A stretch of 64,000 nt of DNA from Candidatus Aminicenantes bacterium (GTDB lineage Bacteria; Acidobacteriota; Aminicenantia; Aminicenantales; Saccharicenantaceae): contig CAWECI010000030.1 in NCBI GenBank assembly GCA_963807525.1, forward strand, positions 33,673-97,672, written 5' to 3'. The notes beneath the pieces are model-generated. The model saw only the letters and a program-made list of their open reading frames with translations. It did no database searches and was not told the DNA's origin. This document shows, one piece after another, positions 5,026-43,295 of the stretch (its first letter is position 1; every line of letters begins with the position of its first letter). The position numbers and the translations under genes are program-made.

Positions 5026-5117
5026 GGAGAGGTGGCCGAGTGGTTGAAGGCGACGGTCTCGAAAACCGTTATCTCGAGCAATTGGGATCGCGGGTTCGAA
5101 TCCCGCCCTCTCCGCCA
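5026..5117 (+). tRNA. tRNA-Ser(CGA)
   Basis: GGAGAGG/CCTCTCC-G-CCA acceptor, anticodon arm ACGGT-CT-CGA-AA-ACCGT, long variable arm, GGTTCGAATCC T-loop. Confidence 0.97.
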
Positions 5118-5131
5118 TGGTCCCTTCATCG

Positions 5132-6166
5132 ATGAAGCGCATCCCCCTGGTCGTGACCGGCTTCGGCCACGTCGGCCGGGCCTTTATCTCCCTGCTCCGC
5201 GAAAAGACGTCCGATCTTGATCGCCGCTACGGCTTGGGCTTCGAGATCCTGGCCGTGGCCCGGGCCGGAGGCTGTTTTCACACCGGCGGACCTCTCGACG
5301 TCCGCCAGCTTTCGCGGTCTGGTGACGTCTGGACGGCCGGCAACCCGGCCTGGCACGAGGGCTCGAGGATCGACGAGGTCCTCCGCGGTCTCGGCCGGGG
5401 CGGCTGCCTGGTCGAGTGCACGCTTTCGAATCTCGAATCCGGCGAGCCCGGCCTGTCCTATATCACGACGGCCTTCCGGGCCGGCTGGCACGCCGTTGCG
5501 GCCAGCAAGGGTGCCCTGGTCGTAGGTCTGCCCGCCCTCAGGGCGCTGGCGGGGGAGAACGGCGTGTCCCTCAAGTTCAGCGGAGCCACGGCCGCCGCCC
5601 TGCCGACGCTTGACGTCGGCCTGGTCTCCCTGGCCGGAACGCGGATCGAGGGCATCCAGGGGATCCTCAACGGGACCTCGAACTACATCCTGACGCGCAT
5701 GGGCGAGGGCCTGGACTACGCCGAGGCCCTCAAAGAGGCCCAGGACAGGGGCATCGCCGAGCCCGATCCGGCCCACGACGTCGACGGTTGGGACAGCGCC
5801 TGCAAGATCCTGCTCATCACCAACGCCTGTCTCGATACGGAATACGTCCTCAAGGACGTTCATGTCGCGGGCATCTCGGGCCTGGATATCGAGTTCGTGC
5901 GGTCGGCCCGCCGGGAAGGCCGGTCCGTCAAGCTCCTGGCCACCGCGGCGCCCGGGCGGCAGGGGGGACGCTGGAGCCTGGACGTCCGGCCCTCGCTGAT
6001 CGACGCGTCGCATCCGCTCGTCCACGTCAACGGCACGGAGAAGGGCATCACGTTCCTAACCGATTCCATGGGCTCCGTGACCGTGACCGGCGGCCGGTCC
6101 AGTCCCCGCGGCGCCGCCGCGGCCCTCCTCAAGGACATCGTCAACATCTACCGCCCCCCGTTCTGA
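5132..6166 (+). CDS. hom: Homoserine dehydrogenase (short form, no ACT domain)
   Basis: GFGHVG Rossmann motif, ASKG, GILNGTSNYIL, GIAEPDPAHDVDGWD. Confidence 0.88.
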   Translation: MKRIPLVVTGFGHVGRAFISLLREKTSDLDRRYGLGFEILAVARAGGCFHTGGPLDVRQLSRSGDVWTAGNPAWHEGSRIDEVLRGLGRGGCLVECTLSNLESGEPGLSYITTAFRAGWHAVAASKGALVVGLPALRALAGENGVSLKFSGATAAALPTLDVGLVSLAGTRIEGIQGILNGTSNYILTRMGEGLDYAEALKEAQDRGIAEPDPAHDVDGWDSACKILLITNACLDTEYVLKDVHVAGISGLDIEFVRSARREGRSVKLLATAAPGRQGGRWSLDVRPSLIDASHPLVHVNGTEKGITFLTDSMGSVTVTGGRSSPRGAAAALLKDIVNIYRPPF

Positions 6167-6267
6167 TCTTCCGCTCTTCCGATCCTGGCCGGCCTCGCAC
6201 GTCCCCGTCTCCGCTTCTATTCGGAGAATTTGCACGGATCGTGACCGCGACTTGGATCTCATGTCCA

Positions 6268-6433
6268 AGGCCGCGGATGAGGGGGTCGAGGGGTATCATC
6301 GGAGGGAACATAAAGCGGTGATTTAGGCTTCATCGGGAGTGAGACGCGGCGTCTTTAACCCGGCTCACGAGCGGGAAGCCGTGAAGAATCACCGCAGTGA
6401 ACGGAGATGATCCCCGAGAGCCCGCCGCGGCCT
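6268..6433 (+). repeat. Structured rod-like intergenic element, copy 1 (candidate ncRNA or structured mobile repeat)
   Basis: Nested inverted repeats. The 131-nt core aligns without gaps to 42633-42763 (115/131 identical by manual count), with compensatory changes. Confidence 0.85.
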
Positions 6434-6494
6434 CAGGGCCCAGGATGGTTCTTGAGTGTCCCGGAATCGCCCGAAGGGCGAGGGGGGATGTGCG

Positions 6495-6523
6495 TTGACC
6501 AAATGGCTCTTTTTTGGTAACGT
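6495..6523 (+). promoter_or_regulatory. Putative sigma70 promoter for tRNA-Ser(GGA)-rocD
   Basis: TTGACC-17 nt-TAACGT with extended -10 TG. Confidence 0.55.
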
Positions 6524-6563: not shown

Positions 6564-6655
<92 letters not shown>

Positions 6656-20059: not shown

Positions 20060-21515
20060 ATGAAGCCCGAGAGGAAGGCCCGCATCCTGGTCATCGACGA
20101 CGAGGAGAACATCCGCAAGTCCCTGAAGATGATCCTCGAGTACGAGGGCTACGAGTTCTTCGAAGCCGCGACGGGGGAGGACGGGCTGGAGATGCTCCAG
20201 GAGACCGTCGGCATCGACCTGGTCCTCCTCGACATCAAGATGCCCGGCAAGAGCGGCCTCGAAGTCCTGGCCGAGCTGCGGACGCGCCCGTACGTGCCGG
20301 AGGTCATCATGATCTCGGGGCAGGGGACGATCCAGGCCGCGGTCGAGGCCACCAAGCTCGGGGCCTTCGATTTCCTGGAAAAGCCGCTCCACCGCGAGCG
20401 GGTCCTGATCAGCATCCGCAACGCCCTCAAGCAGACGGACCTCAGCCGCGAGTGCCAGGACCTCAAGAAGAAGGCCGAGAAACACTACGAGATCGTCGGC
20501 CATCACCCCCTGATCCAGAACCTCTGGAAGGAGATCCTCAAGATCGCCCCGACCAACGCCACGGTCCTGATCCACGGCGAGAGCGGCACCGGCAAGGAGC
20601 TCATCGCCCGGTCCATCCACGCCCACAGCCTGCGGGCCCGCGAGCCCTTCGTCCAGGTCAACTGCGCCGCCATCCCCGAGGAGCTCATCGAATCCGAGCT
20701 CTTCGGCCACGAGAAGGGTTCGTTCACCGGCGCGACCGAACAAGAAGACGGGCAAGTTCGAGCAGGCCGACGGCGGCACGATATTCCTCGACGAGGTCGG
20801 CGACATGAGCCTGCGGACCCAGTCCAAGGTCCTCCGCGTCCTCGAGGAAGGGGAGGTCCAGAAGGTCGGCTCGAGCAAGATCTCCAAGGTCGACGTCCGG
20901 GTCATCGCCGCGACGAACAAGGATCTGCGCAAGGAGATCCAGGAAGGCCGCTTCCGGGAGGACCTGTTCTTTCGCCTGAACGTCGTCCCTCTCTATTCGC
21001 CAGCCCTGCGCGAGCGGGCCGAGGACATCCCCGTGCTCATCGATTATTTCTCCCGGACCTTCGCCGAGGAGAACAACTTCAGGCCGCGCCAGTTCTCCCC
21101 GGATGCCCTGGAGGCGATGACGTCCTATGCCTGGAAGGGCAACGTCCGGGAGCTCCGGAACATCGTCGAGCGGCTGATGATCATGACCGACAAGGACACC
21201 ATCGGGCGCGGGGACCTGCCGGAACCCCTCCGGGAGAAGGCCGGGGCCGTCCTGCCCGAGACGGCCGGGGTCAAGACGCTGCGCGAGTTCCGCGACCTCG
21301 CCGAGCGGGATTTTCTGCTGGCCAAGCTCGAGGCCAACGCTTGGAACATCTCCCAGACGGCCCGGGAGATCAACACGCCGCGGTCGAACCTCTATAAAAA
21401 ACTCGAGCAATACGGTATAAAGATAACGGCCGGAGTGGGCGAGACGGTCGTCTCTCCTTCCCGCGAGGGGGGAGAGGAGGAAAGTCCGGACTCCGAAGGG
21501 CAGGATGATCGCTAA
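20060..21515 (+). CDS. Sigma54-dependent response regulator (NtrC/NtrX family); single frameshift near 20745
   Basis: Receiver (IDDE, LDIKMP), [21 protein letters not shown] in frame 1; [35 protein letters not shown] and Fis HTH in frame 2. Confidence 0.9.
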
Positions 21516-21808
21516 CAGCGATCCCGGGCGACCGGGGGAAAGTGCCACAGAAAAGACACCGCCCCTTGGGAGGCGCAAGCCTTCCGGGGAGCAAGGGTGA
21601 AATGGCGAGGTAAGAGCTCACCGCCCCGGCGGCGACGCCGGGGGCAGGGCAAACCCCATCCGGAGCAAGGCCAAACGAGCCCCATTTTGGGATGGCCCGT
21701 CCCAGGGGGCGGGTCGGCCGCTGGATCCCGGGAGCAATCCCGGGACTAGACAAATGACCGTCGCCCGCGCAAGCGGGGACAGGATCCGGCTTACGTCCCG
21801 CTCCGGCC
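21428..21808 (+). ncRNA. rnpB: RNase P RNA, bacterial type A
   Basis: GAGGAAAGTCC, AGTGCCACAGAAA, GGTAAGAGC, GGCAAACCCC..GGAGCAAG, ACAGGATCCGGCTTA motifs; P1 GGCCGGAGTGGG/CCCGCTCCGGCC; followed by a T tract. Confidence 0.97.
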
Positions 21809-30286: not shown

Positions 30287-30363
<77 letters not shown>

Positions 30364-30538: not shown

Positions 30539-31984
30539 TTGGGAGGACCGAAGATGGCTGGATCATCGAGGAAACGCGGCCTCAAGGAAATTCCCGGGAT
30601 CCAGCTTAAGCTGATCTCGACGATATTCTGCCTGGGAATGTCAGCCATTCTGGCTGCCTGCAGCAGTGGCGAAGGCGGTTGGAGTCCATTTGTCCTCGGT
30701 GAGTGGACTTGGATGTCCGGCGACCGCGGCAATAACAGCGTCGGGGCCTACGGGACCAAGGGCACGCCTTCAGGCTCGAACGTCCCGGGGGCGAGAGAGG
30801 GGGCTGCATCGTGGGTCGACTCCCAGGGCAAACTCTGGCTTTTCGGGGGCCGCCATTCGCTTGGCACCATAAATTTCTTCAATGATCTCTGGCGGTACGA
30901 CCCCCCGACAGATGAATGGACCTGGGTATCCGGCAGCAGCCTGACCAATCAGCCGGGCGTTTATGGGACCTTGGGCACGCCCGCTTCGTCAAACGTCCCA
31001 GGGGCCAGGGAATGGGCCGTCTCTTGGGTTGATGCCTCGGGCAGGTTTTGGCTTTTTGGCGGGGGAGGCTACGATTCGGCCGGCCGCAACGGCTTTCTCA
31101 ATGATCTATGGAATTATGATCCGGCAACGAATGAATGGACTTGGGTGTCCGGAAGTGAGAACGGCGGCCAGGATGGCGTCTACGGGATCAAAGGGACCGC
31201 CGATCCCTCCAATGTTCCAGGATGCAGGGAGAGGGCCGTTTCTTGGATCGATCAGGCCGGCAAGCTCTGGCTCTTTGGGGGATACGGCGCGGATGGTTCT
31301 GGAGGGGCAGACATAGATCTCAATGATCTGTGGAAGTACGATCCAACGACTTCAAATTGGACCTGGATCTCCGGAAGCATAATTGGGGATCAGGCGGGTG
31401 TCTATGGATTGAAAGGGACCTCCGATCCGTCGAACGTGCCGGGCGCGCGGCGGAGCTCTGTTTCGTGGACTGGTTCCAACGGGGAATTTTGGCTTTTTGG
31501 AGGGCACGGCCATGTTCCGGCAGCCAGCGTCGATGTCGATCTCAATGACCTTTGGAGGTACGACCCCACGACCGATGAATGGACCTGGGTATCCGGCGGG
31601 GACACGGGAAACCTGCCAAGTGTCTATGGACTGAAAGGCATAGCCGCCAGAGCGAACGTCCCGGGCGCCAGAGCGGGCGGCGTGTCCTGGGTCGATTCGC
31701 AGGGCAGGCTCTGGCTCTTTGGAGGACAGGGCAGCGCGCTCAATGACCTATGGACTTACGATCCGGCGAATTCTCAATGGACTTGGATATCCGGCAGCGA
31801 TACGGGAGACCAGATGGGTTTCTATGGGGAGAAGGGCACGTCAAGTCCTTTGAACGTCCCTGGTGGAAGGCTGTATGCCGCATCCTGGACGGACCCCGAG
31901 GGAAACCTCTGGCTCTTCGGAGGGGTAGGTTATTCAGCGGGTGATGTAGGCGACTTGAATGACCTCTGGCGGTTCATTCGCTAG
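30539..31984 (+). CDS. Kelch/galactose-oxidase-like repeat beta-propeller, probable lipoprotein (start uncertain)
   Basis: About five ~75-aa repeats GVYG.KG....NVPGAR....W.D..G.LWLFGG.G......NDLW.YD....WTW.SG; ILAAC lipobox. Confidence 0.8.
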   Translation: MGGPKMAGSSRKRGLKEIPGIQLKLISTIFCLGMSAILAACSSGEGGWSPFVLGEWTWMSGDRGNNSVGAYGTKGTPSGSNVPGAREGAASWVDSQGKLWLFGGRHSLGTINFFNDLWRYDPPTDEWTWVSGSSLTNQPGVYGTLGTPASSNVPGAREWAVSWVDASGRFWLFGGGGYDSAGRNGFLNDLWNYDPATNEWTWVSGSENGGQDGVYGIKGTADPSNVPGCRERAVSWIDQAGKLWLFGGYGADGSGGADIDLNDLWKYDPTTSNWTWISGSIIGDQAGVYGLKGTSDPSNVPGARRSSVSWTGSNGEFWLFGGHGHVPAASVDVDLNDLWRYDPTTDEWTWVSGGDTGNLPSVYGLKGIAARANVPGARAGGVSWVDSQGRLWLFGGQGSALNDLWTYDPANSQWTWISGSDTGDQMGFYGEKGTSSPLNVPGGRLYAASWTDPEGNLWLFGGVGYSAGDVGDLNDLWRFIR

Positions 31985-42245: not shown

Positions 42246-42281
42246 AAAGAGGGACAGTCCCTCTGGGGACAGTCCCTCTTT
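42246..42281. repeat. REP-like doubled palindrome GGGACAGTCCC
   Basis: AAAGAGGGACAGTCCC-TCTG-GGGACAGTCCCTCTTT; near-identical element at 62718-62759. Confidence 0.7.
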
Positions 42282-42285
42282 GTCC

Positions 42286-42507
42286 TTAATGGCAGGTGCT
42301 GCAGGACTTGGACGAGCAACTGGTGCAACTCGAGGACGAGGAGGCCTTGAGGCGGCTCGAGCCGCCGCCGATACCGAAGCCCGAGATCATCTTCCGGACG
42401 TCGGCCGCGCCGCACTCGGCGCAAACGACGTCCTTTTCTTTGCCTACGGCCACGAGGCACTCGAACCTCTTGCCGCACTTCTGGCACGCAAACTCATAGA
42501 GTGGCAT
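42286..42507 (-). CDS. FmdB family zinc-ribbon protein
   Basis: MPLYEFACQKCG..FE, CAECG, Cys-rich tail; GGAGG RBS. Confidence 0.88.
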   Translation of the reverse strand: MPLYEFACQKCGKRFECLVAVGKEKDVVCAECGAADVRKMISGFGIGGGSSRLKASSSSSCTSCSSKSCSTCH

Positions 42508-42614
42508 TTCCTCCCTATTTTACACCAGCCTCTCGTCCTGGTCTATAAGGCTTCCGGCTCCCGTGCCTCATCCCCATCAATTGAGGCATGCTCGAGGCAA
42601 ACAGACTGGCGTGA

Positions 42615-42777
42615 GGCCGCCGTAGTGAGGCTGAGGGGTTTCATCGGAGTGAGCATAAAGCGGTGATTTAGGCTTCATCGCGGCTGAGACGCGGCGCTCT
42701 TAACTCGGCTCAGAAGCGTGAAGCCGTGAAGAATCACCGCAGCGAGCGGAGATGAACCCCGAGGCCTCTCGGCGGCC
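42615..42777 (+). repeat. Structured rod-like intergenic element, copy 2
   Basis: Homologous to 6268-6433 with the same nested stems. Confidence 0.85.
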
Positions 42778-42827
42778 GGGCGAGCGCTAAGTCGGAGAGA
42801 GGGGCTTGCCCGGAATGGGGCGGCCCC

Positions 42828-43295
42828 CTACTTGACGAGAGCGATCGCTTCGATCTCTACCTTGACGTCGCGCGGCAGCCGGGCCACCTGGACGGCCGCC
42901 CGGGCCGGGTTCGGGGCTTTGAAGAACTCGGCGTAGACCGCGTTCATCTTGCCGAAGTCGTTCATGTCCTGCAGGAACACGGTCACCTTGACCGCCTCGT
43001 CGAGCGACGAGCCGGCCGCCTCGAGCACGGCCGAGACGTTCTTGAGGACCTGGCGGGTCTGCTCCTCGATCGTGCCGGTATTGAGGTCGCCCGTGGCCGG
43101 GTCGATCGGGATCTGGCCCGAGCAGAACACGAACCCGTTGGCGATGATGCCTTGGGAATAAGGGCCGATGGCCTTGGGCGCCTTGTCGGTTTGCACTTGC
43201 TTCTTCATGGTTTTGCTCCTTGCGAGGCCGGCCCGGGCGCGCGAGGCGAAAGCTGCCGCGAGCCCGAGCATGGCGATGAATCGGCGTCTGGTCAT
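42828..43295 (-). CDS. ridA: RidA/YjgF enamine deaminase with an in-frame Tat-like leader; internal start at 43208
   Basis: [36 protein letters not shown]. Confidence 0.9.

Follow-up and report, generated by a model that had tools for sequence, protein, structure and literature searches.

What is a rod-shaped element of about 165 nt that recurs with compensatory base changes in a bacterial genome: the gene of a structured RNA, or a piece of mobile DNA? The question arose from a 64,000-nt stretch of a Candidatus Aminicenantes contig (CAWECI010000030.1, positions 33,673 to 97,672), referred to in full as the window. The original prediction, made from the letters alone, described an element present twice and offered either a 6S-like multi-copy non-coding RNA or a structure-dependent, non-autonomous mobile element. 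Our analyses favour a small piece of mobile DNA over an RNA gene.

Two copies of the repeat in the window

The core of copy 1 (6288-6418) aligned without gaps to 42633-42763 of copy 2, with 16 differences in 131 nt. All four compensatory changes named in the original prediction were recovered on realignment: the outer stem changed from G-C in copy 1 to C-G in copy 2, A6295/T6411 to T42640/A42756, A6308/T6398 to G42653/C42743, and G6339/C6368 to C42684/G42713. As predicted, both copies folded into the same long rod, with energies of -89.5 kcal/mol for copy 1 (z -5.88) and -95 kcal/mol for copy 2 (z -5.13), and 0/200 shuffles were as low in either case. The copies and the parts of copy 1 are as follows.

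6268..6433, + strand: copy 1, short subtype (S), a rod of 166 nt (alignment, fold; covariance model R1, 180 bits)
42614..42778, + strand: copy 2, short subtype (S) (alignment, fold; R1, 175.5 bits)
6268..6326, + strand: basal 5' arm of copy 1 (alignments A2 and A3; pair counts)
6327..6379, + strand: apical module, the exchangeable part of copy 1 (subtype comparison)
6380..6433, + strand: basal 3' arm of copy 1 (alignments A2 and A3)

The rod consists of short helices separated by tandem G.A pairs and bulges. The 5' arm, common to the S and long A subtypes, comprises an outer GC stem, a tandem GA, a GGAG loop, a 5x1 loop and a terminal, near-invariant TAG (6324-6326). A near-invariant CGT (6380-6382) opens the 3' arm, and a variable bulge comes next. 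The apical module is branched and ~112 nt long in subtypes A and B; the sequence of its loop is specific to the lineage.

Copy 1 has a homoserine dehydrogenase gene as its upstream and a tRNA gene as its downstream neighbour (the hom-tRNA site), and copy 2 lies antisense between ridA and a zinc-ribbon gene, with the ridA stop codon 49 nt from its 3' end. All neighbours of repeat copies in the source genome resembled ordinary cellular genes.

5117..6166, + strand: homoserine dehydrogenase gene, upstream neighbour of copy 1 (NCBIfam NF005290, over cut-off)
6167..6267, no strand: 5' flank of copy 1, missing from empty alleles (allele comparison)
6434..6494, no strand: 3' flank of copy 1, missing from empty alleles and reaching the -35 box (allele comparison)
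6495..6523, + strand: putative tRNA-gene promoter (TTGACC, 17 nt, TAACGT), conserved in filled and empty alleles, scoring under the promoter-scan threshold
6564..6652, + strand: tRNA gene (Ser, anticodon GGA from the sequence), downstream of copy 1 (Rfam RF00005)
about 42290-42507, - strand: zinc-ribbon gene (PF09723)
42517..42545, - strand: sigma-70-like promoter of the zinc-ribbon gene, on the 5' side of copy 2 (similar spacer in other filled alleles)
42828..43187, - strand: Rid family hydrolase gene, ridA (TIGR00004, over cut-off)

Around 42510-42560 and in its orthologues, the zinc-ribbon promoter was present in filled and remnant alleles. Many relatives had the whole spacer cut to 3-13 nt, joining the zinc-ribbon gene to ridA. 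Another structured repeat, with terminal inverted repeats, CTAG-like ends and the look of a classical MITE, was seen upstream of the zinc-ribbon gene in one relative (L138, genome G034), and a short GGGAC-type palindromic repeat lies at 42251-42284 of the window. Rfam also located the following RNA genes elsewhere in the window.

21432-21808: RNase P class A RNA (Rfam)
5026-5114 and 30287-30360: two further tRNA genes (Rfam)

The start of the RNase P gene lies within an open reading frame called at 20805-21515. Another open reading frame, at 30539-31984, consists of about six 73-codon repeats with GC lower than its surroundings.

Family size and host range

Both copies were real, but the genome does not hold only two: a profile search of the source genome found 24 loci, namely 3 full S copies (~165 nt), 8 long A, 7 near-full long B (~225 nt), 1 inverted doublet and 5 partial copies. 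The basal arms were common to S and A and the branched apical module was common to A and B, and in all subtypes the foot of the apical hairpin was marked by TAG on its 5' side and CGT on its 3' side.

BLAST detected the repeat in 34/36 genus relatives and in 0/24 genomes from other families. With covariance model R1 it was found in 35/35 genomes of the genus, at 1 to 30 matches per genome, and in six other genera of the family at frequencies of 1/1, 4/8, 0/8, 0/26, 0/1 and 0/1, while 0/149 genomes of other families in the phylum had a match. The record titles of pattern matches were mostly Ca. Aminicenantes; those titled Eubacteriales or Chloroflexia carried the same elements at 60-72% GC and are probably mislabelled records. 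Viral contigs, phages and plasmids gave no match. The repeat thus occurs only in a few genera within a single family of Ca. Aminicenantes.

The prediction that the element belongs to no recognised family held up against Rfam. At gathering score nothing in the window matched the element, at E up to 10 nothing matched copy 1, and a search of six loci (short, long and composite) at E up to 10 returned ten weak matches, all off the elements. We found no description of the repeat in the main texts of the open literature; supplementary motif lists could hold one.

Covariation and mismatch spectrum

Alignment A2 kept 37/40 short copies (three atypical rows excluded) and A3 kept 62/71 long copies (nine rows excluded). 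Both sides varied in 24/44 pairs of the short copies (102 cells vs 27 shuffled) and in 32/61 pairs of the long copies (242 cells vs 67 shuffled), counts that were reached by 0/500 shuffles in either set, with controls that ignore kinship. Slid pairings fell to half or less paired, and the internal loops were the best conserved columns. The covariation in both sets agrees with the original view that the structure is under selection.

The + strand had been proposed as the folding strand. Its fold was more stable (-83.9 vs -71.8 for the - strand), and it folded better in 37/37 short and 30/30 long copies with RNA and DNA parameters alike. Since the - strand also beat its own shuffles (z -5.05), the folding strand is settled by the mismatch spectrum and not by stability alone. 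In 50 interior columns, isolated mismatches flanked by Watson-Crick pairs numbered 49 G.T, 31 A.G, 10 G.G, 7 A.C and 1 A.A, and 0 T.C, C.C or T.T; by column type, A.G stood at 14 vs 0 for T.C, all of these counts being dependent on ancestry, with lineages sharing mismatches. The mismatches were therefore purine-rich on the + strand only, and the lack of any pyrimidine pair identifies the + strand as the folding strand, in line with the proposal.

In the energy model G.A equals U.C in RNA, and in DNA G.A is 1.3 kcal better than T.C. Together with the A.G excess, this difference leans towards single-stranded DNA, so that the folded molecule may be DNA rather than RNA, as judged from sequence comparison. 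Natural RNA helices tolerate A.G too, and G.U pairs and 3x3 purine loops suit RNA thermodynamically just as well. One tandem G.A lay in a GGAC context in 25/37 short copies.

Two candidate structural roles were rejected. The bulge letters at the TAG/CGT joint vary freely, which excluded a K-turn, and a CsrA sponge was dismissed as no CsrA was found in the 85%-complete genome and the GGA motifs sit in internal loops. Separately, a 105-nt two-hairpin insert was observed at the same 3'-arm bulge in several genomes (L319, L350, L356, L216, L472).

Turnover at orthologous sites

The original prediction called for copy numbers and empty sites across the genome and its relatives; besides the 24 loci, empty alleles were found in relatives at both window sites. 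At the hom-tRNA site, 5/30 genomes had a full copy (S three times, B once and one composite) and 25/30 had none. The ridA site held a copy in 11/30 genomes, of four subtypes in one orientation; the other genomes comprised 13 with 3-35 nt spacers, 3 with remnants and 3 that were not scorable. Filled and empty states were scattered on the host tree, and sister genomes differed.

Globally, 160 copies fell into 81 flank clusters, 56 of which were singletons; one cluster of 30 members was inflated by doublets. The 39 short copies clustered by genome (8 changes vs 21 when shuffled, 0/200). The best within-genome identity was 80-95%, with no young burst. Since several empty alleles resembled deletions, the lineage clustering and the singleton sites are the grounds for inferring gain at a naive site. 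Like a MITE, the repeat has no coding capacity, is dispersed, and has filled and empty sites.

A comparison of four sites in five near relatives showed how copies change in place. The tip was replaced between TAG and CGT, with arms ~90% alike. Copies were also inverted in place, carried an internal deletion across a short repeat, or had been cleanly lost; some formed divergent doublets, and in a nested arrangement another repeat had inserted into the element. Two modules, the basal arms and the apical hairpin, meet at TAG/CGT and occur in different combinations.

A second repeat ("C"), with long terminal inverted repeats, enters or replaces the apex at eight loci (L091, L119, L304, L323, L364, L492, L493, L495), and the S-subtype loop resembles a remnant of its end. 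At one locus (L273; G113:C2:375678-376115), two near-identical short copies stand in tandem 273 nt apart, a local duplication.

Ends, polarity and flanks

No target duplication was found in 92 short copies, whose spectrum matched that of shuffled pairs. The ends had no fixed outer tetranucleotide tag, no sharp boundary and no fixed terminal inverted repeat. In the test for a GTAG/GTGG or CnGA foot, an inner T-T-A-G was found before the apical hairpin, and the outer end carried no fixed tag.

Polarity was measured from the symmetric outer G.A pair, with one value per site. The distance to a convergent stop was 30 nt for the 3' end (21 sites) vs 107 for the 5' end (29 sites), and the distance to a start was 95.5 for the 3' end (45 sites) vs 154 for the 5' end (39 sites). 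The repeat is thus polar: its 3' end sits tight on a -35 box or convergent stop, and its 5' side keeps 60-75 nt more. Some copies end directly at a stop codon or -35 box. TTGAC was considered as a target motif, being present at 17/41 convergent sites vs a 13% background, but these cases stem from a few recurrent sites with Val-Lys ends. No bias was detectable with respect to the replication strand, where the count was 10 vs 6 and the skew very weak.

At the hom-tRNA site, the sequence of the 3' flank and promoter edge recurs in inverted, decayed form as the 5' flank: 6196-6206 can pair with 6484-6494 beside the tRNA promoter. This inverted flank was seen in 4 full-length filled alleles and one scar. 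A general inverted target duplication was considered, on counts of 23/164 inverted vs 8 direct over control and, in a second count, 12/54 vs 5, and was rejected after trimming the outer 22 nt, when the excess was gone (8 vs 7 direct of 66, p 0.28). The inverted flank is a site-specific observation, not a general one. At L309 and in the ispF-peptidase gap (G000:C9:132416; L436, L480, L482), the neighbour's promoter region resembles the inverted 3' end of ispF, at about 70% over 66 nt.

Signs of an RNA gene

A sigma-70 motif was present in 0/43 of the 5' flanks vs 47/75 in the positive control, and a U-tract in 0/54. Among 127 scored copies, 37 were same-sense with their neighbours, 31 antisense, 49 divergent and 10 convergent (33/160 copies were not scorable with the home-made gene caller), and there was no link between the repeat and the direction of transcription. 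In one metatranscriptome (5% of words; contigs that carry no strand, end or level information), contigs from relatives covered the element, 17 of them at position 6298.

The 6S family RF00013 matched 0/1 source genome and 0/61 genomes of the order, and the positive control matched in 5/14 genomes; 6S is thus simply undetected in this order. The centre of the repeat is closed by conserved G.A and G-C pairs, with no open bubble of the 6S kind. The zapA-rny gap is a frequent 6S location. In this genome (L253:1809-1927; G000:C9 near 206900) it is only ~115 nt long, folds no better than shuffles (z -1.45) and does not hold this repeat. 6S may have been lost or have strongly diverged in this order. 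Of the two options first proposed, a non-autonomous mobile element fits the empty or differently filled sites, the lineage clustering and the range of 1-30 matches per genome, while a 6S-like multi-copy RNA was not borne out, having neither an RF00013 match nor an open bubble, promoter, terminator or link to transcription direction.

Search for an enzyme and an IS1111-type passenger

No cognate enzyme was found: none of 67 loci around Y1 transposase and reverse transcriptase (RT) genes, a subset of roughly 180 Y1 matches, contained a copy. Y1 genes were equally common in a genus without the repeat (23/26) and in the genus with it (31/35), and RT genes occurred in 5/35 genus relatives. The Y1 genes of the source genome stand between short inverted repeats of their own, an arrangement described for TIRtrons (PMC3733652). 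Five of them (G000:C13:71483, C15:68675, C25:166124, C9:22622 and C7:136412) each have their own inverted repeat family, with top 18-mers in 12-52 copies. A scan of the genome, loci L001-L141 and 80 metagenome loci with arms other than those of long subtype B brought up no autonomous parent, in the sense of an arm pair enclosing an open reading frame; the one exception was an IS1111-type passenger with its own ends.

This passenger lies at the TAG joint in L447 (genome G004), L317 and L326. The L447 element matched PF01548 and PF02371 over cut-off (DEDD transposase) and has 16-nt subterminal inverted repeats and a downstream non-coding region. It fits the definition of the IS1111 group in PMC11187229, in which the subterminal repeats are extended by 7 and 3 nt; members are reported there to insert in REP and attC sites. 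Its downstream non-coding region carries a stretch matching the insertion site. Among copies (the L448-L456 set) this stretch differs, tracking the target in L447, L448, L450 and L454 and less well in L449 and L455. The element occurred in 7/81 genomes, mostly at other sites, and is therefore a passenger.

Competing explanations

The repeat has a one-strand fold under selection, a modular build, turnover at its sites and polarity. With a probability of roughly 60%, we regard it as a non-autonomous, dispersed repeat of the ERIC/bcr1/REPIN kind in which the single-stranded DNA fold of one strand is the unit of selection. A trans-acting strand-transfer protein would recognise the shape of the single-stranded DNA; most simply this could be an HUH/Y1-type enzyme, or host recombination at exposed single strands might do the work. 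The fold would be copied or transferred to sites between genes, frequently within or next to older hairpins, with no target duplication. Recombination between copies would exchange tips and arms in place, and deletion would remove copies and trim the 3' side to the first essential base. If only fold-competent variants were copied again, covariation would follow without any RNA function. A bolder version, which we hold to be unlikely, would make the repeat a new class of mobile DNA, with recognition of a long single-stranded shape, fixed polarity, no duplication, cargo-like exchange of tips at TAG/CGT and re-occupation of sites by different subtypes; its enzyme would be one not yet linked to any repeat, refilling a few dozen promoter and gene-end sites.

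The fold might be selected in RNA instead, as a co-transcribed protein-binding or nuclease-modulating module that spreads via an RNA intermediate in a SINE-like, 3'-primed manner, like bcr1 or TwoAYGGAY. The + strand RNA fold is stable and rich in G.U, a tight 3' junction combined with a loose 5' side is reminiscent of target-primed copying, the 5' sides of the hom-tRNA site and L309 carry decayed inverted copies of 3'-side DNA, RNA-library contigs of relatives cover the element, and TwoAYGGAY is described with similar copy-number variation and divergent doublets (bioRxiv 10.64898/2026.09.22.753630). We nevertheless consider this reading doubtful: the few RT genes (5/35 genus relatives) never stand beside a copy, promoter and terminator are missing, in about half of the co-directional copies it is the non-folding strand that is read, A.G is far commoner than U.C against RNA parameters, the inverted flanks are not general (8 vs 7 direct of 66), and no CsrA was found in the 85%-complete genome. 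Improbable, too, is a domesticated border element of transcription units (an insulator, a supercoil-driven cruciform, or a BIME-like nucleoid-protein or gyrase site) that no longer transposes and that gene conversion renews at a restricted number of old sites. Such an element would explain why the same sites recur across the genus in one orientation, why the repeat is present in 35/35 genus genomes, why neighbours look like ordinary cellular genes, why arms are orthologous though the tip differs, and why the 3' end abuts -35 boxes and stop codons; the spread of 1 to 30 matches per genome, the loss of each site in most relatives and the 56/81 singleton flank clusters argue against it.

Two further readings have very little probability. 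Compensation could be mimicked with no selection at all if template switching in a quasi-palindrome copied arm onto arm, a process suggested by the decayed inverted flanks at some sites and the many double transversions between copies. Copying of this kind would remove the internal loops, which are in fact the best conserved columns, so plain arm-copying does not explain the pattern; it is also strand-symmetric, whereas the purine-rich mismatches are restricted to the + strand. A multi-copy 6S RNA, or a substitute that binds sigma-70 RNA polymerase, is the most far-fetched reading. It draws on length, rod shape and the missing canonical 6S (RF00013 0/61 genomes; zapA-rny gap ~115 nt), and is contradicted by the lack of any Rfam match at E up to 10, the centre closed by G.A pairs, the exchangeable tip, the missing promoter, and the absence of the repeat from 26/26 genomes of the sister genus, which shows no 6S need met by the repeat.

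Comparison with known systems

Long covarying bacterial hairpins are usually filed as candidate non-coding RNAs, and this repeat covaries without a promoter, a terminator or a fixed position. Tolerated single mismatches offer a simple sequence test, which here leans to single-stranded DNA. For studying the spread of ERIC-, bcr1- and TwoAYGGAY-like repeats, it supplies hundreds of diverged copies, filled and empty alleles, a defined swap joint and a targeting RNA-guided IS, within the limits of the missing enzyme, an uncultured host and its being one of several palindromic repeat families in these genomes.

ERIC/IRU of Enterobacteriaceae and other MITEs are likewise described as gene-less, dispersed, intergenic elements of 100-250 nt that form a long imperfect hairpin, with filled and empty sites (PMC3184786). 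Unlike them, the Aminicenantes repeat has no target duplication or fixed terminal inverted repeat, its apex is exchangeable, and its ends are ragged and polar. The same account describes bcr1 of the Bacillus cereus group, also ~155-165 nt long, with non-conserved positions between relatives and compensatory changes, and gives its cognate transposase as not known (PMC3184786). In contrast to bcr1, for which 5-bp direct repeats, a cruciform fold and transcription are documented there (PMC3184786), our repeat forms a single rod or a rod plus branch, without duplication.

REPINs and BIMEs with RAYT (TnpA-REP), and TIRtrons, share with the repeat inverted doublets, a short conserved motif at the hairpin foot and the role of IS110-group target, according to PMC3116915, PMC6006769 and PMC3733652. 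The hairpin of the Aminicenantes repeat may likewise be read as single-stranded DNA, to which the mismatch spectrum leans. However, no Y1 gene is flanked by the Aminicenantes repeat, its outer end carries no fixed GTAG/GTGG tag, copies are only 80-95% alike, and the unit measures 165-230 nt, compared with two REPs of 20-65 nt in a REPIN (PMC3116915, PMC6006769, PMC3733652). TwoAYGGAY (RF01731; PMC2864571) is reported as similarly structured and multi-copy, with variable copy number and divergent doublets, and its mechanism of spread is presented as not known (bioRxiv 10.64898/2026.09.22.753630). Unlike TwoAYGGAY, the Aminicenantes repeat has no AYGGAY loops and no RF01731 match, and belongs to a different phylum.

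The likeness to 6S RNA (RF00013) ends at length and rod outline, since the repeat is many-copy, has no match, open bubble or promoter, and is not at zapA-rny. The Aminicenantes repeat works like ERIC, bcr1, REPINs and TwoAYGGAY but departs from each in a defining feature, and what it adds to them is a test based on tolerated mismatches, a polarity, the exchange of tips and an IS that targets it.
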